64,000 bases of DNA from an uncultured delta proteobacterium. Lineage in GTDB: Bacteria; Desulfobacterota; Deferrimicrobia; Deferrimicrobiales; Deferrimicrobiaceae. Location: contig CAWEPX010000027.1 in the NCBI GenBank assembly GCA_963811025.1, positions 219,745-283,744 of the forward strand, written 5' to 3'. The notes under the pieces were generated by a model. It searched no databases. It worked only from the letters and a program-made list of their open reading frames with translations, and was not told where the DNA came from. Positions 13,100-48,369 of this stretch are shown here, in pieces. Positions within the stretch are counted from its first letter, which is position 1; every line of letters begins with the position of its first letter. The position numbers were made by a program, and so were the translations under genes.

Positions 13100-13591
13100 C
13101 TACTCCTCCACCCCTACGGTCGGCTGGCGCCTCGCCTTCGGGTAGTCCTTCCGCAACGGATGTCCCTCGAATGCCTCGTACATGAGGATCCTCTTGAGGT
13201 TCGGGTGATCCCGGAAGAGGATGCCGTACATGTCGTACGCCTCCCGTTCAAACCAGTCCATCCCGACCCAGACCGGGATGACCGAATCGATCACCGGGTC
13301 CTCCTCCGGGACGCGGGCCTTGATGCGCACCCGGTGCTTCTTTTCGAGAGAATAGAGATGGTAGACCACTTCGAATCGGGGCTCCTCCCCCAGGTAGTCC
13401 ACTCCGGTCAGGTCCATCGCGAAGTCGAACAGGAGGTCCGGGTCGTCCCGGAGAAAGGTGCAGATCTCGACGATTCTCTCCCGCTTGACCTGGGCGGTGT
13501 CGTCCCCGAAATCGGAGTGGGTCGCCACGATATCGTCCCCGAACCGCTCGATCAGTTTCGCAAGCACGAGGCTGGGTTGTTTGTCGGTCAT
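13100..13591 (-). CDS. nuoC: NADH-quinone oxidoreductase subunit C
   Basis: 163 aa, 30-kDa subunit family; separate from nuoD (not fused). Confidence 0.95.
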   Translation of the reverse strand: MTDKQPSLVLAKLIERFGDDIVATHSDFGDDTAQVKRERIVEICTFLRDDPDLLFDFAMDLTGVDYLGEEPRFEVVYHLYSLEKKHRVRIKARVPEEDPVIDSVIPVWVGMDWFEREAYDMYGILFRDHPNLKRILMYEAFEGHPLRKDYPKARRQPTVGVEE

Positions 13592-39677: not shown

Positions 39678-39712
39678 ACCCGGCAACGCGACCAGGGAAA
39701 AACGCTTTACGA

Positions 39713-39746
39713 AAAGGGCTTCCCCGGAAGCCCTTTTCGTTTTTCC
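39713..39746. terminator. Bidirectional rho-independent terminator between atpE and the convergent bfr-like gene
   Basis: aaaagggcttccccggaagcccttttcgttttt: a GC stem flanked by A- and T-tracts. Confidence 0.7.
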
Positions 39747-39762: not shown

Positions 39763-40263
39763 TTACCCTCGATCCCGGAGCATCATGTTCAGATCCTCCT
39801 GCAGCGCCTGGAGGTCCTCCTCGTGCTCCACCTCGTCCTGGAGGATCTGCGTCGCGAGGTTGTAGGTCACCGGGTCCTTTCCGTTGACCTCTTCGAGAAG
39901 AGCGTGATAGACGGAGATGGCGCACTGCTCCCCGGCGATGTTCTGCTCGAGAATCTTCCGGACGAACGGATCCGCCGGATCCTCGTAGGAGCAGTTGGAC
40001 CATTCAAACCATTTCTTCGGCGTGGTGATCGGCGTGCCCCCGAGCTGTATGATTCGGCCGGATACCATGTCCGCATGCCGGAGTTCGTCCGCGGCGTGCT
40101 GCATCAGCTCGGCGATCACCGCATCCTTCATCGGCCCCGCCACGATCTTGGCCCCGATCCAGTACTGGTAGTAGGCGAGCCACTCGTCCGCGAACGCCTT
40201 GTTCAAGAGCTCGATCACCCGTTCCGCGTGCTTCCCGACGATCTCACGTCCTCTGGTGCCCAT
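39763..40263 (-). CDS. bfr: Bacterioferritin-like ferritin-family protein
   Basis: ...VIELLNKAFADEWLAYYQYWIGAKI...ELRHADMVSGRI... matches Bfr helix A/B pattern; start MGTRGREIVGKH (ATG 40263). Confidence 0.7.
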   Translation of the reverse strand: MGTRGREIVGKHAERVIELLNKAFADEWLAYYQYWIGAKIVAGPMKDAVIAELMQHAADELRHADMVSGRIIQLGGTPITTPKKWFEWSNCSYEDPADPFVRKILEQNIAGEQCAISVYHALLEEVNGKDPVTYNLATQILQDEVEHEEDLQALQEDLNMMLRDRG

Positions 40264-40630
40264 GCTCTCCTCCTTTACCGAAGGGGTTATCCCCGTGGTC
40301 ACAGGCATTCTCGCCCGGCCGGAGAATGCCTGCAAGGTAATCGGACACCAGCCTCTCAGGCGTCTTGACCACAGCCCCTACCACGACCTGGATACCCTGT
40401 TCGGCGAACAGCGCCTGGGCACGCTCCCCCATGCCCCCGGCGAGAACGACGCTCGCGCCGCATCTCGCCAGCCAGGAAGGCAACAGGCCGGGCTGATGCG
40501 GAGGGGCCCAAACGTTTTCACGCCCGAGAATTTTTTGTTCGTCGGGATCCACATCGAGCAGGGCGAAACATTCGCAGTGGCCGAAATGCAGGGATAATCT
40601 CCCGTTCGTCAAGGGAATCGCGATTCTCAT
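40244..40630 (-). CDS. NifX/NifB-like (COG1433) dinitrogenase FeMo-cofactor-binding-domain protein, copy 1
   Basis: MRIAIPLTNGRLSLHFGHCECFALLDVD...ASVVLAGGMGERAQALFAEQGIQVVVG; SD AAGGAGGAAC. Confidence 0.75.
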   Translation of the reverse strand: MRIAIPLTNGRLSLHFGHCECFALLDVDPDEQKILGRENVWAPPHQPGLLPSWLARCGASVVLAGGMGERAQALFAEQGIQVVVGAVVKTPERLVSDYLAGILRPGENACDHGDNPFGKGGEHGHQRT

Positions 40631-40675
40631 GGCTGTTCCTCCTTGTCGTGCCCGGCTTCCCGGTCTCGCCCCGAC

Positions 40676-41545
40676 TTAAGCCAAGGCGTTCCAGATCCGT
40701 TGAATATCCTCGACGCAGGGGGCCCCGGTTTCCACGACCGCCCGTTCCTGCATCTGTGCCAGGTTCACGGATGGGTCATACCGGACGCGGCCGGCGATCC
40801 GCGCCCCGGCCATGCGACCTGTTTCCTCGATCCGACAGGCCATTTCCGGGTTGAGGTCCCACTTGTTAACGCAGACCGCCGCCGGAATGCCGAAGTGCCC
40901 CGTCAGGGAGAGAACGCGCTCCAGATCGTGTTCCCCGGACACCGTGGGCTCCGTGACGACCAGCACGAGCGTTGCCCCCGTCACCGATGCGATCACCGGA
41001 CATCCGATCCCCGGCGGGCCATCCACGATGATGAAGGGACGATTCCTCATCTCGGCGATGCGGCGGGCCTCCCGGCGGACCGTGGAGACCAGCTTGCCGG
41101 AGTTTCCTGCCGCTACGCCCAGGCGGGCATGGACCATGGGGCCGCAACGGGTCTCCGAGATCATCCACTCGCCGCAGAGACGCTCTGGAAAATCGATTGC
41201 TTGTTCCGGGCAGAACCGTACGCACACGCCGCACCCTTCGCAGGAGACCGGGTCGATCGAAAACCTCTCCGCGCCGGGGGATCTCCCGTTCGTTCTCACC
41301 GCGTCGAACCGGCAATGCGTAAGACACGTCCCGCAACCCATGCAGTCGTCTCGTCGGATGACGGCCTCATGTCCGCTGCGGAAATCATGGCGCTCCTGGA
41401 TCCGGGGCGAGAGGACGAGGTGCAGATCCGCCGCGTCCACGTCGCAATCGGCGATGACCGGCCGGTTGGCCAGCACGGCAAATGACGCCGCCAGGCTGGT
41501 CTTGCCCGTTCCGCCCTTGCCGCTGATGACGACGAGCTCCTTCAT
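40676..41545 (-). CDS. MinD-superfamily P-loop ATPase with inserted 2x[4Fe-4S] ferredoxin domain (COG1149), copy 1
   Basis: MKELVVISGKGGTGKTSLAASFAVLA Walker A; CMGCGTCLTHC and CEGCGVCVRFCP ferredoxin motifs. Confidence 0.85.
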   Translation of the reverse strand: MKELVVISGKGGTGKTSLAASFAVLANRPVIADCDVDAADLHLVLSPRIQERHDFRSGHEAVIRRDDCMGCGTCLTHCRFDAVRTNGRSPGAERFSIDPVSCEGCGVCVRFCPEQAIDFPERLCGEWMISETRCGPMVHARLGVAAGNSGKLVSTVRREARRIAEMRNRPFIIVDGPPGIGCPVIASVTGATLVLVVTEPTVSGEHDLERVLSLTGHFGIPAAVCVNKWDLNPEMACRIEETGRMAGARIAGRVRYDPSVNLAQMQERAVVETGAPCVEDIQRIWNALA

Positions 41546-41555
41546 GCTCGCCCTC

Positions 41556-42302
41556 TCACTTCACAGATCCCATTCGCAAGGCGGCAATCGTGCCCACACC
41601 CAGCCCGATCAATACGATTTCCTGCACAAGGCCGCGCAGACCTCCCTCGCTTCGCCGTCCCGGCACCAGGTCGGCAAGTGCAATGTATAGGAAGCTCGCC
41701 GCGGAAAGAGACAGGAGATAGGGGACTGCCCACCGAGCGAACGGAAGCGTGAAGTATGCGAGGATCGCACCCAACAGGGCGGCAAGACTCGACAGTGCAT
41801 TCCACAACAGAGCGCGGGCTCGTGTGTAACCGCTCTCCAGCAGGATTGCGAAATCTCCGACTTCCTGGGGCACCTCATGGGCGATGACGGCCAGGGATGT
41901 GGCGATTCCCAAAGGAACCGATCCGGCGAACGCGGCGGTGATGGCGACGCCGTCCACGAAGTTATGGAGGGAGTCGCCGATCAAAATCATTTCCCCCGCG
42001 CGGGTGTGGACGTCACAGGGCCGTTCGTGGCAGTGACGCCAAAGGGCAAACTTCTCGAGCAGGAAGAAGAGAACGATGCCGACCAGAACCGTCCCCAATA
42101 CCGATTCGCTCGGCAACCGTCGCAACGCATGCGGGATCATTCCGAAAAACGCCGCCCCGAGGAGGGTGCCGATCGCGTAAGGGATCAATCGGGACGTAAC
42201 GAGAGCCAGCCGCTTCCCTTGAAAGAGCAGGAGCAATGCGGCAAGTCCGACGGAACACACCGATCCGAGAAGGCAAAACGTTATGATCAGAGCCAGATTC
42301 AT
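41556..42302 (-). CDS. ZIP family metal (zinc/iron) transporter, ZupT-like
   Basis: 248 aa, eight TM; ...LHNFVDGVAITAAFAGS...HEVPQEVGDFAILLESG... ZIP signatures. ATG 42302. Confidence 0.8.
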   Translation of the reverse strand: MNLALIITFCLLGSVCSVGLAALLLLFQGKRLALVTSRLIPYAIGTLLGAAFFGMIPHALRRLPSESVLGTVLVGIVLFFLLEKFALWRHCHERPCDVHTRAGEMILIGDSLHNFVDGVAITAAFAGSVPLGIATSLAVIAHEVPQEVGDFAILLESGYTRARALLWNALSSLAALLGAILAYFTLPFARWAVPYLLSLSAASFLYIALADLVPGRRSEGGLRGLVQEIVLIGLGVGTIAALRMGSVK

Positions 42303-43269
42303 GCCGTTTCCCCGAACTGTTTCTTGCGTCCTGCGATGATGTAGAATCTGCGCTCCCCCAGGACAACCGTGGTCACCGTTCCGGCCGCAATCAGCGCATC
42401 CAAGTGCTTGAGCGCTTCGGGCACAGGAATCCCCAGCCCGGTTGCGAGATCCAATACGGTGCAGGGACGTCTCCCAAGCAAATCCAGGATGTCTTCGACC
42501 CATGCATCGCGGAAGGCGGGGATGGGCGCTCCGTGGATGTTGGCCCCTCCAACAAGCTCCACCCGCCGCGGGAAGAGATGTTTCAGGTCGAGCATCCGGT
42601 CCGCGGCAAGCGGATACGCGAACTCCTCGGCGGGGGGACGGGAAACGGTGTTCAGCTGTACGCGCGCCGGTCCTATATGCTTTGCGAGGGCCGCAATCTT
42701 TTCTCGCCTCGGAGGTTATGCCGGTCACGCCTGCGAGCAGGAAAACCTCCAGCCACACCTCCCCTGGGAAGTGCCGGGTGAATGCGGCGATGCCGGAGAC
42801 CACCCGTTCCAGGGAGATATCCTCATGCGGGCGGTTAACGTATTGAAACGTAAACTCGTCCCCGGCGTCCAGCGAAGGAAGCACGAGGTCGGCCGGCATC
42901 AAGGCATCCTGGACGTCGTCCATCCAGAGGAGTCGAGCCATTGGTCAAAACGGCCAATGGGATGTTCGTCAGGCCCTTGATGTTCTCGATCAGGTCGCCG
43001 ATGCCGGCATTCAGCGTGGGTTCCCCCGACCCTGCGAGAGTGATGGTATCGGGGGGATCCCCGGCGGCCAATTTCCGTTCCAGCTCTTCCATGACCGCAT
43101 CGACGGCGATGTACTCCCTCCGATCGACGGTTTTGTTCTTGGTCCGACCCAGCTGGCAGTACACGCAATCATAGGTGCAGGTCTTGAACGGAACGAGATC
43201 GATCCCGAGCGAACGTCCCAGGCGCCTCGACGGAACAGGCCCATAGATGTGTCGAACGCCGGTCGGCAT
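42299..43269 (-). CDS. Radical SAM protein (COG0731-like), interrupted by at least 2 frameshifts
   Basis: MPTGVRHIYGPVPSRRLGRSLGIDLVPFKTCTYDCVYCQLG (CxxxCxxC). Continuation pieces ...LLWMDDVQDALMPADLVLPSLDAGDEFTFQYVNRPHEDISLERVV...GEVWLEVFLLAGVTGITSEA... and MLDLKHLFPRRVELVGGANIHGAPIP... lie in other frames. Confidence 0.7.
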
Positions 43270-43273
43270 GGCT

Positions 43274-44121
43274 TCAAACCCCCATTGCGTTCTTCCGATG
43301 AATGGTCTTTTCGAGCAGGCTCTCGAAGAGCCCGCGGTATTCCGGCAGCGCCTCCACGATCAGCCTTCCCCTGGAATAGGCTTCCGCGATCCGCCGATCA
43401 TCCGGGATTTCGAGAAGAACGGGTACGTTTTCTTCCTTGCAGAACGCATGGACCCGCTCGTCCCCGATGCCGACCCGGTTGACCACCACCCCGATGGGAA
43501 TTCCGATCGCCCGGACCAGTCCTACGGCAAGTCTCAGGTCGTGGAGACCGAAAGGTGTCGGTTCCGTGACGAGCAGGACGAGGTCCGATCCCCGAAGGGT
43601 GGCAACCACCGGGCAGGAGGTGCCCGGAGGCGCGTCCAGGATCGCGGGCATGCCGTTTCGCAGACGGGCCTTCACCGCGTGGATGAGCGGCGGGGCCGTC
43701 GCGACCCCGACGTCGAGACGGCCTTGGATCAGTGTGATGTTTCCCGCATGCATCGTCTCGATGACCCCGATGCGCTTTTCGACCTCACGAATAGCCTTCT
43801 GGGGGCACACCTTCGCGCACCCCCCGCAGCCGTGACACATTTCGGGGAAGAGGAGGGGGGGGTCCCGAACGAGACGATGGCGTGGTACTCGCAAAACCGG
43901 CTGCATTCGCCGCAGCCGTCGCAAAGGGACTCGTCCACAATCGGAACCGGGATGGAGACGGTCTCCTCCCCGCGCAGGTCGCCCTCGAGGAAGAGGTGGG
44001 CATTCGGTTCCTCCACGTCGCAGTCCAGAAGCGCCACCTCCGAACCGAGGGCACGGGCCAGGTTGACAGACACGGTCGTCTTGCCAGTGCCGCCCTTTCC
44101 CGAAGCGACTGCGAGAATCAT
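43274..44121 (-). CDS. MinD-superfamily/ferredoxin ATPase (COG1149), copy 2, with a frameshift in a G8 run (43853-43860)
   Basis: MILAVASGKGGTGKTTVSVNLARALG...CDGCGECSRFCEYHAI (ORF 43729..44121) continues as ...LFPEMCHGCGGCAKVCPQKAI...LLVTEPTPFGLHDLRL... in the 43274..45052 frame. Confidence 0.85.
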
Positions 44122-44331
44122 GCATCGCCTCCATCCGGGGAGTCCCCTCGTGGCCCGCCGCCGGCGCTATCCTATATGCCCACGCTTCCCTCTTCGCCTG
44201 GCCGTTCCCTCGTCCACCTCGTCCTGCCACCCGTTGCGGGTGGTATCGATGCGGTCGAATTTCGCCGTGTACGGCTTGATATCCAGAAGGGGGGTGGCGT
44301 CCAGGACGGTTTCGCTCATGCCTGATACCCC

Positions 44332-44685
44332 CTAGACATCCGCAGAGAGGGCCGCAACCAGCCGGCCGGAACGAAATCTTTCGATGGCTTCGGCCACGGT
44401 GGTCGCATCGGTGGTGAAGATCCTGATTCCCGCCGCGGAGAGCACGCGAAACGCCTTCGGGCCGCAATGCCCAGTGATCACGACACCTGCAGTCCGAGAC
44501 GGGCAACCGTCTCCGCCGCCTGGATGCCCGCTCCCTGGGCGAGCATTCATGCTCTGTGTATTGTCGATCGACTCGTATTGGCCGAGAGACGGTGTCGACA
44601 GGATGGACTTCGCTGCCCGCACCGAGATCGGCGAGTCGTGAAGGGGATTCCAGCGTCCTTCCGCCGGTCGGCGAGGAAGGAGCAC
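44332..44685 (-). CDS. NifX-like (COG1433) protein, copy 2, divergent (HFG motif degenerate), GTG start
   Basis: ...DSPISVRAAKSILSTPSLGQYESIDN...GSGHPGGGDGCPSRTAGVVITGHCGPKAFRVLSAAGIRIFTTDATTVAEAIERF aligns with the NifX-like family core. Confidence 0.55.
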   Translation of the reverse strand: MLLPRRPAEGRWNPLHDSPISVRAAKSILSTPSLGQYESIDNTQSMNARPGSGHPGGGDGCPSRTAGVVITGHCGPKAFRVLSAAGIRIFTTDATTVAEAIERFRSGRLVAALSADV

Positions 44686-44699
44686 CTCGAAGAGATCGG

Positions 44700-45052
44700 T
44701 TCCTCGGGCGCTTCCTTTCCTCGCCCTCTAACTCATCGAGCAGCTTCCTGATTATGTCGAGTTGACTCTTTAACGCCCCGGCCTCCTCTTCCAGCAACCG
44801 CTTCTCCGTATCGGGCGAAGGCTCCTCCCCGAATGCCGGGCCGCCCCTTCCGAACCTCATCCAACCGGGCAGTCCGGTTGCATAGAACATATGCCGCCAG
44901 CCGCGGCCGCCGCCGCCGAAGCCGGCTCCCCGGCCGTAGCCCCCCCGAAAAAAGCGCCCGAACAACGGGCTCCGGGGCCCCGCACAGAACCCGGCGCCTC
45001 TTCCTGTTAACGGTCCCATTCCCATCGGACCTGTTCGATCTCCGCGTGGCAT
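44700..45052 (-). CDS. DUF5320-like Gly/Arg-rich protein; C-terminus unresolved (no in-frame stop, probable indel)
   Basis: MPRGDRTGPMGMGPLTGRGAGFCAG... N-terminus and C-terminal coiled-coil-like ...EKRLLEEEAGALKSQLDIIRKLLDELEGEE. Strong SD AAGGAAAGGAGGG. The frame runs on with no stop. Confidence 0.5.
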
Positions 45053-45085
45053 ATTCGTTACCCTCCTTTCCTTGAATGACCTGGG

Positions 45086-45319
45086 TCACTCCCGGGTCAT
45101 CGTGGCCCCGCACTTCGGGCATTTGCGCGCAAGGCAGGGTACGCCGCGTTCGTGGGGTTCCTTCTGCCCACATTGCGGGCAGATGCAGTAGCCGCTGGGG
45201 CCGGCGGCTAAGGGCCCGCCCATGCGGCCGGCTCCTTGACCTCCCTGGCCCTGCCCACGTCCTCCGCCCTGCCCACGTCCTCCGCCCTGTCCCATTCCGC
45301 CTCGTCTTTTTCCGAACAT
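45086..45319 (-). CDS. Gly/Arg-rich zinc-ribbon protein (77 aa)
   Basis: [24 protein letters not shown]...[32 protein letters not shown]; SD AAGGAGGAAAATCCC ATG. Contains an 18-bp tandem duplication (45249-45284). Confidence 0.65.
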
Positions 45320-45376
45320 GGGATTTTCCTCCTTGTCTTTGTCGTTTTTTCCCCGAAATCGACGGCGGCCGCCTCC

Positions 45377-45711
45377 TTAAACATCCCGGCATGGCCATGC
45401 TTCGATTCGGCAACTTCCGCGCAAGATACGCTTCGATGACCTCCTCCGCGTCACCGGCGATAAAGGGAATCGTCCGTATGCCGTAAGTGGCAAACAGGCC
45501 GGCCAGCGGTCGGGAGATCGCCCCGCATATGAGTTTTCGGACCTCCCATTCGACAAGCTTTCCGGCCTTTTGAACCGGATCGATCCCCTCGAGCGGTTCC
45601 TCCCTTTGCCCTGTGACAACCCCATGGTGAAACATCGAGCATAAGAATCTTCCGGGAAACATCGAACACCGGAGAGATCCTCCCGTTCCAGACGGTAAGG
45701 GCAACCTTCAT
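45377..45711 (-). CDS. NifX-like (COG1433) protein, copy 3, interrupted by frameshift(s); 3' end uncertain
   Basis: MKVALTVWNGRISPVFDVSRKILMLDV (ORF 45451..45711), then ...GIDPVQKAGKLVEWEVRKLICGAISRPLAGLFATYGIRTIPFIAGDAEEVIEAYLARKL in the 44733..45704 frame. SD GGAGG 9 nt upstream of ATG 45711. Confidence 0.65.
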
Positions 45712-45743
45712 CGTGGTGTGCCTCCAGTCACCACCATAGAGTG

Positions 45744-45760
45744 AAGCATCAGACGTGCCA
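45744..45760 (-). promoter_or_regulatory. Sigma-54 (-24/-12) promoter candidate for the NifX/MinD-Fd/DUF5320/rSAM cluster
   Basis: Minus-strand TGGCACGtctgATGCTT fits TGGCACG-N4-TTGCW with one mismatch. Located ~33 nt upstream of the nifX-like-3 ATG and directly downstream of a sigma-54 activator gene. Confidence 0.55.
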
Positions 45761-45887
45761 TGTCGGGAAACGAGGGACCTCCGGGAGGGAACAATCAGAA
45801 AATCAATATGTTAGAATTCAAAAACGAATTCGCCACCATCAGGCATAGTAGCGTTATCGCAACCCTGCCCCCGTTGAACAGGTGCGG

Positions 45888-47296
45888 GATTGCGACTTTA
45901 TCCGCTCCGGCGGGATCGTCCGTCTTCCTCGGGCAGGGGGATCCCCAAGGCTTTCATCTTCCGGAAGAGGGTGGTTTTGTGGATTCCCAGTTCCCGGGCG
46001 GCGGCAAGACGATTGTACCCGGTTGCGCCGGAGCGCCTCACGGATGGTTTGCGATTCCATGGCCCGAACGGCGTCGTTCATTTCCCTCCGTTTCATCATC
46101 GGGGGAACCCGTGCAGTATAGTCCTCCGGCAGGTGCCGGGGCTCGATCCGGCCTTCGGCGCACAGAACAAAGGCATGCTCGATGATGTTTTCCAGTTCCC
46201 GGATATTGCCGGGATAGTCGTGCGCCATGAGAAACGACAGAACCTCGGGGCTTACGCCCGAGATCGATTTGCCCTGTATCCGGTTCCACCGGGTCACAAA
46301 ATGATCGACCAGCAGGGGGATGTCCTCCTTTCGTTTCCTGAGGGGGGGCATTTCGATCCGCACGACGTTGATCCGGTAATACAGGTCCTGCCGGAAAGCA
46401 CCCTTCTTCACCTGAGCCGCCAGATCCTTGTTCGTGGCAACGATCACCCGGACGTCGACGCGGACCGTCTGGGTGCTGCCGAGCGGTTCGAAGGTCCTCT
46501 CCTGGAGAACGCGAAGCAGCCGTACCTGCAAGGCCGGGCTGATCTCGCCGATTTCGTCCAGGAACAAGGTTCCCTTGTCGGCCAGGGAGAAGCGGCCGGG
46601 CTTGTCCCTCTCCGCGCCGGTGAACGCGCCGGCCCGGTACCCGAAGAGTTCCGATTCCAGGAGGGTGTCCGGAAGAGCACCGCAATTTACCGCGATGAAC
46701 GGTTTTTCGTGCCGGGGGCTTAAGGAGTGGAGCGCGCGAGCGAGCAGTTCCTTCCCCGTCCCCGTCTCTCCCTCGATCAGAACGGTGCTGTCGCTTCCCG
46801 CCACCTGGGGCAGAACGTCGAATATCCTGCGCATGGACGGGCTCCGGGAGATCAGGTCGCCTGCCTGGAACCGCCCCGTAAGCTCCTTGCGCAACTCCTC
46901 GACGAGACTCAAGTCGCGAAAGGTTTCCGCTCCTCCGATGATGTCCCCCTGCTCATCCTGCAAAATCGCCGTGGACACGCTGATCGGTATGCGCCGGCCT
47001 TCCGCGTCGATGATGAAGGCCGACTTGTTGATGACGGGAGTCCCGGTCTCCAGGGTCTGGCGGAGTGCGCAATCCACCTCGCACATGCTGGCGCGAAACA
47101 CTTCCGGGCAGGGCTTTCCGATGGCTTCTTCGCGAGAGATCCCCGTGATCTCTTCCGCGGCCCGGTTGAACGATGTGATCCGCCAGTCGCGATCGACCGT
47201 GAACACCCCGTCGGAGATGCTTTCCAGGATGATCTCCGTGGAGCGCAGGGGGTCGTTTCCCGCCTGTTTCCCCTTCCTGCCGCCTGTTCCCGCCAT
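45888..47296 (-). CDS. Sigma-54-dependent transcriptional activator (PAS - AAA+ sigma54-interaction - Fis HTH), frameshift at ~46015 before the HTH
   Basis: PAS (ILESISDGVFTVDRDWRITSFNRAAEEITG), AAA+ (VLIEGETGTGKELLARALH...GAFTGA...ESELFGY), and C-terminal ...NRLAAARELGIHKTTLFRKMKALGIPLPEEDGRSRRSG* in the adjacent frame. Confidence 0.88.
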
Positions 47297-47394
47297 CCGG
47301 AAACCCACCTTCACGGCTCCTGCAGCCGCCTCGATAGCTTCCTATCCGGTTTTAGTATCGTCGCAGGAGACCCCTCTTGTTCCTCCCGGCTTAT

Positions 47395-47844
47395 TCAACC
47401 CTTGCTCGGGATTTCCCCCGAACCTTCGCAAGGGCCATGGGGGCCACCTTTCCCGCGCCCTTCCCAAGCGTGTCCGTGAGGCCCGTTTCCGTGATGCGCG
47501 CAGGCCGTCGCCGGAGTCACTTCCCGTAACCGTCCGGTCTTGAAAGCGGCTACCGTCTCCTCGACCGTCGGATGCTCCGAAAAGAAGACGCGGATGCTCG
47601 CCGCCTTCAGCTTGCCGAGGGCTCCCATCCCGATACCGCCGACCACCATGGCATCCACGCTCTGCCCCGCGAGTTGTGCGAGCGGCTGGCACATTCCGTG
47701 GGCATGGTGGAGATTGCGGTTCGCGATGGCCTGGCAGCTCCCGTTTTCCGTGTCGACGATCATGAAGAGCGGCGCCGAACCGAAGTGCGGGCTCACGGGA
47801 CTCTGAAGGCCGTTGTCCCGAATGATGGGGATGCAGATGTTCAT
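47395..47844 (-). CDS. NifX-like (COG1433) protein, copy 4
   Basis: MNICIPIIRDNGLQSPVSPHFGSAPLFMIVDTENGSCQAIANRN...VDAMVVGGIGMGALGKLKAASIRVF; SD AGGAGG; the ATG overlaps the upstream gene stop (ATGA). Confidence 0.8.
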   Translation of the reverse strand: MNICIPIIRDNGLQSPVSPHFGSAPLFMIVDTENGSCQAIANRNLHHAHGMCQPLAQLAGQSVDAMVVGGIGMGALGKLKAASIRVFFSEHPTVEETVAAFKTGRLREVTPATACAHHGNGPHGHAWEGRGKGGPHGPCEGSGEIPSKG

Positions 47845-48323
47845 GACGTTTCCTCCTGATTGGGGGTTGATTTCACGCACAACTCAATGGTTCCTGCCGC
47901 CCATCCGTCGCTGCCGCATGCCGCGGCAAGGAGGGTTGCTTCCGCATTCATCGCCGCCGATTTCTCCACCACGCCGGCGACCTTTCCCGTACGGCGGCAC
48001 CGGGGACACTCGCAACGGGGGGAACGCGGCCGTTCCACGCGGATGGTTCCGCCTTCGATCTTGAGGGCCTTGCCGTGGGCCAGTGCCTCGGCTACCTTGC
48101 GGTGGGCGGTCCCCAGGATACGGCCGAAGGTCGGTCGTGAAACGTGCATCCGCTCCGCGCCCTGCTCCTGGTACAGCCCTTCCAGGTCGGCCAGCCGGAT
48201 CGCTTCGAACTCGTCAAGCGTGAGGACGACCTCGACCAGCTCGCATGCCGGGATCCCCGCCGGATGAAAGACGGACGCTATCGGTCTCCCGGCAATTCGG
48301 CGGCAACATTGTGGTCTGGGCAT
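47841..48323 (-). CDS. DUF134/UPF0251 (COG1342) putative DNA-binding protein
   Basis: MPRPQCCRRIAGRPIASVFHPAGIPACELVEVVLTLDEFEAIRLADLEGLYQEQGAERMHVSRPTFGRIL, the canonical DUF134 N-terminus; Cys-rich C-terminal tail. Confidence 0.8.
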   Translation of the reverse strand: MPRPQCCRRIAGRPIASVFHPAGIPACELVEVVLTLDEFEAIRLADLEGLYQEQGAERMHVSRPTFGRILGTAHRKVAEALAHGKALKIEGGTIRVERPRSPRCECPRCRRTGKVAGVVEKSAAMNAEATLLAAACGSDGWAAGTIELCVKSTPNQEETS

Positions 48324-48341
48324 AATGACACCTCAACATAA

Positions 48342-48369
48342 ATTATAAGCATATGCTCATAACTGTCAA
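48342..48369 (-). promoter_or_regulatory. Consensus sigma-70 promoter TTGACA-N16-TATAAT for the DUF134-nifX4 operon, with a palindrome in the spacer
   Basis: Minus strand TTGACAgttatgagcatatgctTATAATttatgttgaggtgtcattATG: both hexamers are perfect. The spacer carries the AGCATATGCT palindrome (possible operator). Confidence 0.6.

Follow-up and report, generated by a model that had tools for sequence, protein, structure and literature searches.

The orange protein (ORP) complex is among the few anaerobe-specific sets of proteins that are conserved and tightly regulated without having an agreed function. Its locus has been in the literature since 2011 and its regulator, OrpR, has been characterized (PMC3897727, PMC8359166, PMC4641369). 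In Desulfovibrio vulgaris Hildenborough the locus (DVU2103–DVU2109) consists of orp5-orp4-orp3 and orp7-orp8-orp9, both of which depend on sigma-54, with OrpR (DVU2106) acting together with integration host factor (IHF) (PMC3897727, PMC8359166, PMC4641369). Orp3 and Orp4 are ATPases with two [4Fe-4S] motifs each, Orp8 is the Mo-Cu-S orange protein, Orp5 resembles a small [2Fe-2S] protein and Orp9 (MrpORP; DVU2109, Dde_3202) is a Mrp/NBP35 domain fused to a NifX-like ‘Di-Nase’ domain. MrpORP donates Fe-S clusters to Orp3, Orp4 and Orp8, which co-purify, and the Di-Nase domain binds a [3Fe-4S] cluster (PMC6345978). We have analysed 64,000 nucleotides of contig CAWEPX010000027.1 from an uncultured delta proteobacterium (this whole stretch is ‘the window’ throughout). 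It is highly probable that the region 39763–48369 of the window is the orp locus of a member of Candidatus Deferrimicrobiaceae, with an operon driven by OrpR and sigma-54. The co-occurrence of COG1149, COG1433 and COG1342 genes in this region had been taken in an initial annotation to lack an assigned function; it is instead the described ORP complex locus. The grouping of the genes is functional, but the system is the already-known ORP/OrpR system rather than an unassigned one.

The window has a G+C content of about 63% and the genes of the cluster are all on the minus strand. Gene families were called by Pfam and NCBIfam, and solved relatives were identified by a PDB search. Pfam and motif scans recover the genes and both promoter elements of the initial annotation at the positions it gave. 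The activator, its target region and the operon are arranged as follows.

45898–47314, minus strand: OrpR orthologue with PAS, AAA+ (GAFTGA) and helix-turn-helix (HTH) regions (PAS_4, Sigma54_activat, AAA_lid_14).
45847–45897, minus strand: pair of upstream activating sequences (UAS), AGTCGCAATCCCGCACCT (45897–45880) and GGTTGCGATAACGCTACT (45864–45847), matching the family consensus.
45801–45813, plus strand: IHF consensus AATCAATATGTTA (WATCAANNNNTTR), exact match.
45745–45760, minus strand: sigma-54 −24/−12 promoter TGGCACGTCTGATGCT.
45086–45711, minus strand: NifXc-GlyZn, with a divergent NifX-like domain, a Gly/Arg-rich linker and a six-Cys Zn-ribbon (PF02579, 23–27 bits).
About 44700–45052, minus strand: DUF5320 protein with a Gly/Arg/aromatic-rich N-terminal part and a C-terminal coiled coil (PF17253, E = 2e-23).
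About 44690–44332, minus strand: NifXb, the ORP/Orp8 orthologue (PF02579; the start is not resolvable in the window).
44167–44319, minus strand: TrmO/TsaA-like remnant of 50 residues.
43274–44121, minus strand: MinD2, MinD-type ATPase with an inserted 2×[4Fe-4S] ferredoxin, Orp4-type (CbiA/ParA/Fer4).
42299–43269, minus strand: radical S-adenosylmethionine (SAM) enzyme with a C-terminal ArsR-type winged HTH (Pfam, NCBIfam).
41556–42302, minus strand: ZIP-family divalent-metal transporter, distantly ZupT-like (PF02535, E = 5e-32).
40676–41545, minus strand: MinD1, MinD-type ATPase with an inserted 2×[4Fe-4S] ferredoxin, Orp3-type (Pfam).
40244–40630, minus strand: NifXa, stand-alone equivalent of the MrpORP/Orp9 Di-Nase domain (NF041136, E = 2e-34).
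39763–40263, minus strand: DPS-like (DPSL) mini-ferritin, the final gene of the operon (PF00210).
39709–39740, between the convergent DPSL gene and atpE: hairpin with a 14-bp stem flanked by A and T runs, likely a bidirectional terminator.

The locus shares with orp of D. vulgaris a PAS-AAA+-HTH activator with a Cys triad, a sigma-54 promoter behind palindromic sites and an IHF site, two 2×[4Fe-4S] MinD ATPases, an ORP orthologue, a Di-Nase domain, a small Cys protein related to NifX as the first product of the ATPase operon and a restriction to anaerobes. Both ATPases in the window have two CxxCxxCxxxC motifs apiece. The homology, the gene order and the conserved regulatory layout are direct observations of the present analysis.

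The activator carries the motif CPEVFRASMCEVDC, a C-x8-C-x3-C triad with E at +2, which aligns with C52/E54/C61/C65 of D. vulgaris OrpR. In the D. vulgaris protein, redox sensing is by a PAS [4Fe-4S] cluster on C52, C61 and C65, with an acidic residue at 54 (PMC8359166). The motif C-x-[DE]-x6-C-x3-C is found in all 33 activator homologues (33/33) adjoining such clusters, and the PAS domain of the window protein is predicted to hold a redox-sensitive [4Fe-4S] cluster through the same triad. The Fis-type HTH is recovered once a 1-nt insertion at 46022 is corrected. The AAA+ region has GAFTGA where D. vulgaris OrpR has GAFTDA. OrpR was regarded in a 2021 paper as confined to Deltaproteobacteria; Cys-triad homologues stand beside ORP clusters in loci L002, L012, L039, L045, L046, L054, L064, L066, L069 and others, from metagenome-assembled genomes (MAGs) labelled Krumholzibacteriota, Acidobacteriota, Fibrobacterota, Planctomycetota, Lentisphaerota, Verrucomicrobiota and Armatimonadota. 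NCBIfam holds no model specific to OrpR, ORP, DUF5320 or the radical SAM enzyme of this locus.

The sigma-54 element TGGCACGtctgATGCT lies at 45760–45745 (minus strand), leaving a gap of 33 nt to the NifXc ATG (45711). The 300 nt upstream of NifXc were compared in 30 loci. Of 29 orthologous loci, 26 have a sigma-54 site with at most two mismatches, mostly about 50 nt 5′ of the start codon. Upstream of it are two copies of an 18-bp palindrome, AGT[AC]GC-N6-GC[TG]ACT, which is the UAS; the 9.1 kb of upstream sequence contains 36 matches to the consensus, compared with about 168 in a background of 2.5 Mb (an enrichment of about 58-fold). The modal spacings are 33 nt from UAS to UAS and 104 nt from the proximal UAS to the promoter, and the window has exactly both, with the UAS pair placed just past the stop codon of the activator itself. 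The suggestion of the initial annotation that a PAS-sensor protein controls the cluster through sigma-54 is thus strengthened, the promoter element being conserved at a fixed distance from the activator sites. Between the UAS and the promoter the window has an exact IHF consensus WATCAANNNNTTR; IHF is needed at the equivalent position in D. vulgaris (PMC3897727). The sequence GAATTCGTTTTTGAATTC (45829–45812) was considered as an activator site and dropped, as the 30 upstream regions place the conserved sites further upstream. No second sigma-54 promoter (≤ 1 mismatch) was found inside the cluster, and an Rfam scan of the whole window gave no riboswitch (e.g. for the molybdenum cofactor) and no other RNA family.

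The closest relatives of the locus are L085 and L086, two metagenome contigs identified by the MinD1 search, with about 91% DNA identity to the window (91–96% for L085). In both, the gene order from activator to DPSL is identical to that of the window and every gene is intact; the DPSL gene faces the same convergent atpE-atpB-atpI-hemL genes. An exact-sequence look-up with the MinD1 of the window gave no match. The radical SAM and ZIP genes of the window overlap by ATGA, and in L085 the same overlap is also seen at MinD2/radical SAM and MinD1/NifXa. The sole good terminator is the hairpin at 39709–39740, after the last gene. Overlapping or closely spaced genes with a terminator solely after the last of them argue for one operon of about 6 kb, from 45711 to 39763, although its continuity, like the repression by DUF134 and the role in cluster trafficking discussed below, is something we infer.

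The arrangement is widespread. MinD1 has more than 588 relatives in a species-level genome collection, and the best 80 loci were searched by tblastn with the corrected window proteins. The recurrent order is activator – NifXc(-Zn ribbon) – DUF5320 – NifXb – [TrmO-like] – MinD2 – [radical SAM] – MinD1 – [Mrp/NBP35] – NifXa, in MAGs labelled Desulfobacterota, Acidobacteriota, Planctomycetota, Verrucomicrobiota, Lentisphaerota, Fibrobacterota, Bacillota and others. MinD2 is immediately 5′ of MinD1 in 72 of the 80 loci. Where the contig leaves room, NifXb is found upstream of the ATPases in 47 of 50 loci, NifXc in 34/50, the activator in 27/50 and DUF5320 5′ of the ATPases in 29/50; NifXa lies 3′ of MinD1 in 47 of 64, and a radical SAM gene separates the ATPases in 16 of 72. 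Conserved gene order had been set in advance as the check that could refute the grouping. It was found, with the same order in 80 loci and an identical order in L085, so that the grouping is not refuted and is a real conserved unit. The window itself does not represent a new type of system; three testable points come from the comparison, the first being that the OrpR layout (UAS pair, AT-rich/IHF region, sigma-54 promoter) recurs at fixed spacing in MAGs of at least eight labelled phyla.

Of the four NifX-like proteins, NifXb is the orange protein. The best solved relative of NifXb-type proteins is Desulfovibrio gigas ORP (PDB: 2WFB; E = 6e-18), and the intact NifXb of L085 is 41% identical to it (E = 4e-23), clearly the best of the four paralogues; from its sequence NifXb is the Orp8 orthologue. 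Like D. gigas (Megalodesulfovibrio) ORP, the NifXb type is a single domain of about 115–120 residues followed by two ATPases, and contigs around the closest relatives of D. gigas ORP read DUF134 – x – ORP – ATPase – ATPase – NifX – Zn ribbon. Unlike D. gigas ORP, the NifXb gene of the window is interrupted by nine 1-nt indels.

NifXa covers positions 265–363 of the 365 in the NCBIfam model NF041136 (MrpORP) with E = 2e-34. In other loci a Mrp gene lies between MinD1 and NifXa and covers positions 2–253 of the same model (E = 6e-112); such a separate gene precedes NifXa in 19 of the 47 loci that have NifXa downstream of MinD1. The Mrp gene thus accounts for the first two-thirds, and NifXa for the C-terminal third, of one model, and MrpORP is split in two in these loci. 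Two MinD1 homologues on short contigs, P0121 (433 residues) and P0129 (418 residues; 87–93% identity), also contain PF02579; these apparent MinD1-NifXa fusions could be real or frameshift artefacts.

NifXc is the most divergent, with a PF02579 score of 23.3 bits in the window and 27.5 bits in the L011 homologue (cut-off 26.3). The initial annotation had a separate Gly-rich Zn-ribbon protein next to it; this open reading frame (ORF; 45319–45086) is in fact the C-terminal domain of the NifXc gene. NifXc and the Zn-ribbon form a single gene in 13 of the 16 loci that have both parts (201 residues in L085), and they are split in the window because of a 1-nt insertion at 45381. NifXc-GlyZn sits at the Orp5 position, as the first gene of the ATPase operon. 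In comparison with L085 the window also has an 18-nt in-frame insertion, CAGGGCGGAGGACGTGGG, at 45289 in the Gly/Arg-rich linker of NifXc-GlyZn, a low-complexity stretch that varies in length between close relatives.

The Pfam name of the NifX family, dinitrogenase iron-molybdenum cofactor, invites the reading that the cluster is a maturation set for the nitrogenase cofactor (FeMo-co), and some papers have read the Desulfovibrio homologues in this way (PMC10533852). The cluster does contain four PF02579 domains and a radical SAM enzyme, the fold is that of NifB, NifX and NafY, and radical SAM, carriers and SIMIBI-class Fe-S ATPases together recall FeMo-co assembly. However, there is no nif gene among the window ORFs examined with Pfam, the flanks being complex I, ATP synthase, hemL, cytochromes and uvrA. 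The NifX-like proteins belong to different clades and are nearest to MTH1175, TM1290 and ORP, not to NifX/NafY. The radical SAM protein falls below the NifB and MoaA cut-offs and is unrelated to NifB at family level; it has no named family and no close PDB structure. A nitrogenase function is scarcely credible for this locus.

Most ORFs of the window are broken as read because of one-base indels. Base-by-base comparison with L085 gives about 25 of them, including nine in NifXb, four in NifXc (45633, 45612, 45606 and 45381), two in the radical SAM gene (42934 and 42699) and one each in OrpR (46022, a 1-nt insertion in the frame of the HTH), MinD2 (43860, a 1-nt deletion) and hemL (37361). The nine in NifXb are packed into 160 nt (44483–44639); elsewhere there is about one per 700–1000 nt. 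The indels are probably assembly errors. This is the simplest reading because housekeeping hemL is also hit and because amino-acid identity is high in the restored frames. A decayed, non-functional cluster was set aside, with hemL likewise frameshifted and L085 fully intact.

Upstream of the activator is a second transcription unit.

48342–48369, minus strand: sigma-70 promoter of the DUF134-NifXd unit, TTGACA-16-TATAAT (12/12).
48360–48345, minus strand: 16-bp operator-like palindrome ATGAGCATATGCTTAT, overlapping the −10 box.
47841–48323, minus strand: DUF134/UPF0251 predicted DNA-binding protein of 160 residues (PF02001, E = 6e-21).
47395–47844, minus strand: NifXd, Nitro_FeMo-Co domain with a His/Gly-rich tail (PF02579, E = 1.4e-20).

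The perfect sigma-70 promoter with a palindromic spacer that had been noted before DUF134 is confirmed: the match is 12/12 at 48369–48342 (minus strand), with the palindrome AGCATATGCT in the spacer. DUF134-NifXd is a unit separate from the sigma-54 operon, and the earlier view of the whole 8.6 kb as one sigma-54-linked cluster holds for the core and fails for this pair. The closest homologue of DUF134 (95% identity) is from Ca. Deferrimicrobiaceae, and in other contigs of Deferrimicrobiaceae (L081–L084) the DUF134-NifX pair occurs alone in unrelated neighbourhoods. The solved relatives of NifXd are TM1290, TM1816 and MTH1175. L085 has no DUF134-NifXd pair beside orpR; compared with it, the window has a 6.35-kb insertion (53628–47278) that replaces a native 210-nt region upstream of orpR and carries a rhodanese-domain protein (53048–51762), multihaem cytochromes (51740–50400 and 50173–48668) and DUF134-NifXd. 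As the insertion replaces the region upstream of orpR, transcription of orpR in the window may come from the DUF134 promoter.

Elsewhere DUF134 is repeatedly linked to ORP genes. It stands beside orpR in several loci (divergently in L001) and heads the ORP operon in the OrpR-less loci L049, L052, L053, L055 and L087. The 16-bp palindrome ATGAGCATATGCTCAT is conserved in DUF134 promoters, where it overlaps the −10 box, and occurs only once in the window. Across 1.25 Mb of loci there are 17 matches, against 1–3 in shuffled sequences, and nearly all are 14–31 nt 5′ of DUF134 in many phyla. Two matches have no adjacent DUF134: a perfect palindrome in L089 (7960–7975) is 25 nt before the ATG of an ORP gene, and one in L015 (5616–5631) is 5′ of a DUF5320-like gene that heads an ORP cluster. 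A palindromic operator in its own promoter and before some ORP operons makes DUF134/UPF0251 a candidate ORP regulator, the second of the three points; DUF134 is likely, as predicted from sequence, to be an autoregulated DNA-binding regulator of ORP modules. A literature search found no paper giving DUF134 this role, and the conserved 16-bp operator in DUF134 promoters is apparently new. For the cysteines of DUF134 as a cluster-sensing site we make no claim; in the alignment many of the proteins, though not all, have an N-terminal Cys, and the C-terminal Cys motifs differ between lineages.

By homology with D. vulgaris, the following mechanism can be proposed. At low redox potential holo-OrpR would bind the two 18-bp sites past its own stop codon, IHF would bend the DNA, and OrpR would open the sigma-54 promoter 104 nt downstream. 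Since in D. vulgaris the PAS Cys triad binds a redox-sensitive [4Fe-4S] cluster, the operon should be on only at low redox potential, and oxidation of the PAS cluster would shut it off. The products would be NifXc-GlyZn (Orp5 position), DUF5320, NifXb (Orp8), MinD2 and MinD1 (Orp4 and Orp3), NifXa and the lineage-specific radical SAM-winged HTH, ZIP and DPSL proteins. DUF134 would most likely repress its own near-consensus sigma-70 promoter through ATGAGCATATGCTCAT. Under strictly reducing conditions, dimers of the ATPases and the NifX-like carriers would hand over non-covalently held anionic metal-sulfide clusters (Fe-S or Mo/W-S). In this scheme OrpR sensing, IHF dependence, the Orp3–Orp4–Orp8 complex and Fe-S transfer are carried over by analogy from the literature. 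The metallocluster-handling role proposed at the outset is a reasonable one, because most of the products belong to metal- or Fe-S-binding families, and it fits the published biochemistry of MrpORP, Orp3/4/8 and the orange protein (PMC6345978).

Several points weigh against identifying the region as an orp locus that works in this way. The genes are all co-directional and the operon is single, whereas in D. vulgaris two divergent operons flank orpR (a divergent layout is present in L056, L073 and L080). The UAS AGT[AC]GC-N6-GC[TG]ACT, present twice, is similar in form to the D. vulgaris OrpR site GGGCGYRTTTTGCGCCC but different in sequence, and the latter (≤ 3 mismatches) was not found near the cluster. 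Unlike Orp9, the Di-Nase domain is encoded by a gene of its own, and the Mrp/NBP35 half of MrpORP was not found within the 64 kb; with no Mrp/NBP35 P-loop gene in the window, the half that transfers Fe-S in vitro is missing or encoded elsewhere. DUF134-NifX is under sigma-70 rather than sigma-54, and DUF5320, the Gly/Arg-Zn-ribbon extension, the radical SAM-winged HTH protein, ZIP and DPSL are additional. These departures from the Desulfovibrio prototype in layout, activator site, loss of Mrp and extra genes are differences of membership, not of kind. The equations of Orp5 with NifXc and of Orp7 with DUF134 are tentative, based on position and on one published remark (a reported identity of 41% between Dde_3197 and a Di-Nase protein). 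An exact IHF consensus occurs in just 3 of the 30 upstream regions, so the IHF site has modest weight. rpoN is not among the genes of the window. The ORP orthologue with its nine indels, alone among the genes of the cluster, may be a pseudogene in this strain. The published hypothesis for ORP complexes, moreover, is cell division.

The sigma-54 match alone is also not above chance, 0.73 being expected per 64 kb. Together with the placing of DUF134-NifXd beside orpR by an insertion that the closest relative does not have, this could suggest a chance grouping of unrelated metal-themed genes with an accidental sigma-54-like sequence. Such a coincidence is extremely unlikely. The order is kept across 80 loci and many phyla, the operon is identical and intact in L085 and L086, and the distances between promoter and UAS are fixed; position and conserved geometry make the sigma-54 site credible. 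Chance is refuted for the core and survives only for the adjacency of DUF134-NifXd, ZIP and the ferritin.

In D. vulgaris the ORP proteins were first proposed to act in cell division, with the MinD-like ATPases assisting in the placement of the septum. Inactivation of orpR leads to morphological defects, MrpORP is polar and the OrpR regulon is annotated ‘cell division’ (PMC8359166, PMC6345978, PMC4641369); MinD1 and MinD2 do weakly match MinD models. The scores are, however, 46–69 bits against cut-offs of about 200, and the authors of the hypothesis themselves call the role “still unclear” and possibly indirect. The neighbours in the 80 loci are metal, Fe-S, thiol and redox genes (Mrp/NBP35, radical SAM, ZIP, DPSL, peroxiredoxin, CGGC, Zn-ribbon), and the 15 commonest accessory families include no min, fts or div genes. 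Recurrent neighbours in loci L003–L079 are an MBL-fold protein after NifXa (26), DUF89/ARMT1-like (16), an FmdB-type Zn-ribbon with a Cys-rich tail (16), PaaI-type thioesterase (15), SAM methyltransferase (15), CGGC (14), 1-Cys peroxiredoxin (10) and CoA-disulfide reductase-rhodanese (6). These accessory genes agree better with a theme of metals and thiols than with the published idea of cell division. The third testable point is that the typical ORP operon is bigger than that of Desulfovibrio and consistently includes the NifX-Gly/Arg-Zn-ribbon fusion and DUF5320, so that metal-sulfide handling fits better than cell division. A role in septum positioning is improbable for this locus.

Handling of metal sulfide need not mean delivery of clusters. 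The NifX-like domains with cationic Gly/Arg tails might instead store or detoxify inorganic metal sulfide, as a thioferrate-like polymer or as thiomolybdate/thiotungstate, in the manner of IssA from Pyrococcus furiosus. IssA is an IPR003731 domain with a cationic Gly/aromatic tail that holds anionic thioferrate non-covalently, and there is an uncharacterized mesophilic ‘IssX’ clade with Gly-rich tails (PMC5524996). The Gly/Arg linker of NifXc and the Gly/Arg/Trp-rich region of DUF5320 recall the IssA tail in composition, and NifXd has a His/Gly tail. The orange protein carries [S2MoS2CuS2MoS2]3− non-covalently, and a ZIP importer and a DPS-like ferritin are in the same predicted transcript. 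Unlike IssA, however, the tail of NifXc ends in a Zn-ribbon, the Gly-rich region of DUF5320 is on a separate coiled-coil protein, and the setting is an ATPase operon; ferredoxin-insert ATPases and a radical SAM enzyme would be superfluous for passive holding, and ZIP and DPSL are rare, being found in few loci only. We regard storage without delivery as distinctly improbable and retain the cluster-handling ORP module as the preferred reading. A wider proposal, offered tentatively and rather unlikely to hold as a whole, is that the extended ORP module (the NifX-like carriers and their cationic Gly/Arg tails, DUF5320, the pair of Fe-S MinD ATPases, MrpORP in split or fused form and, in many cases, a radical SAM enzyme) would be an assembly and hand-over line for an inorganic metal-sulfide cofactor or polymer, with a logic like that of the nitrogenase cofactor, that DUF134/UPF0251 proteins would be regulators binding ATGAGCATATGCTCAT, and that OrpR control would extend well beyond Deltaproteobacteria.

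The TrmO/TsaA-like remnant, which is absent from the initial annotation, keeps residues ~118–161 of a 164-residue protein, whose gene is full length between the ORP gene and MinD2 in 12–15 other loci. ZIP and the DPSL ferritin are rare, ZIP being seen at this position in L033, L051, L077, L085 and L086; the NCBIfam ZupT model gives 47 bits with the ZIP protein, below its cut-off. The last gene had been called a Bfr-like ferritin; its product is DPS-like, with B. fragilis DPSL (PDB: 2VZB) as the best solved relative (E = 1e-39 over 148 residues) and hits to archaeal DPS models, although the NCBIfam DPS models stay below their cut-offs (74 bits against 158). It resembles the DPSL proteins of Bacteroides fragilis and Sulfolobus (PDB: 2CLB), but unlike the usual DPSL of oxidative stress its gene belongs to a sigma-54 operon whose transcription is expected when conditions are reducing. 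Further away in the window are two tandem complex-I (nuo) gene sets (717–24970, minus strand) with several antiporter-like subunits; the nuo 49-kDa subunit is present twice, at 13113–11875 and 23649–22420.

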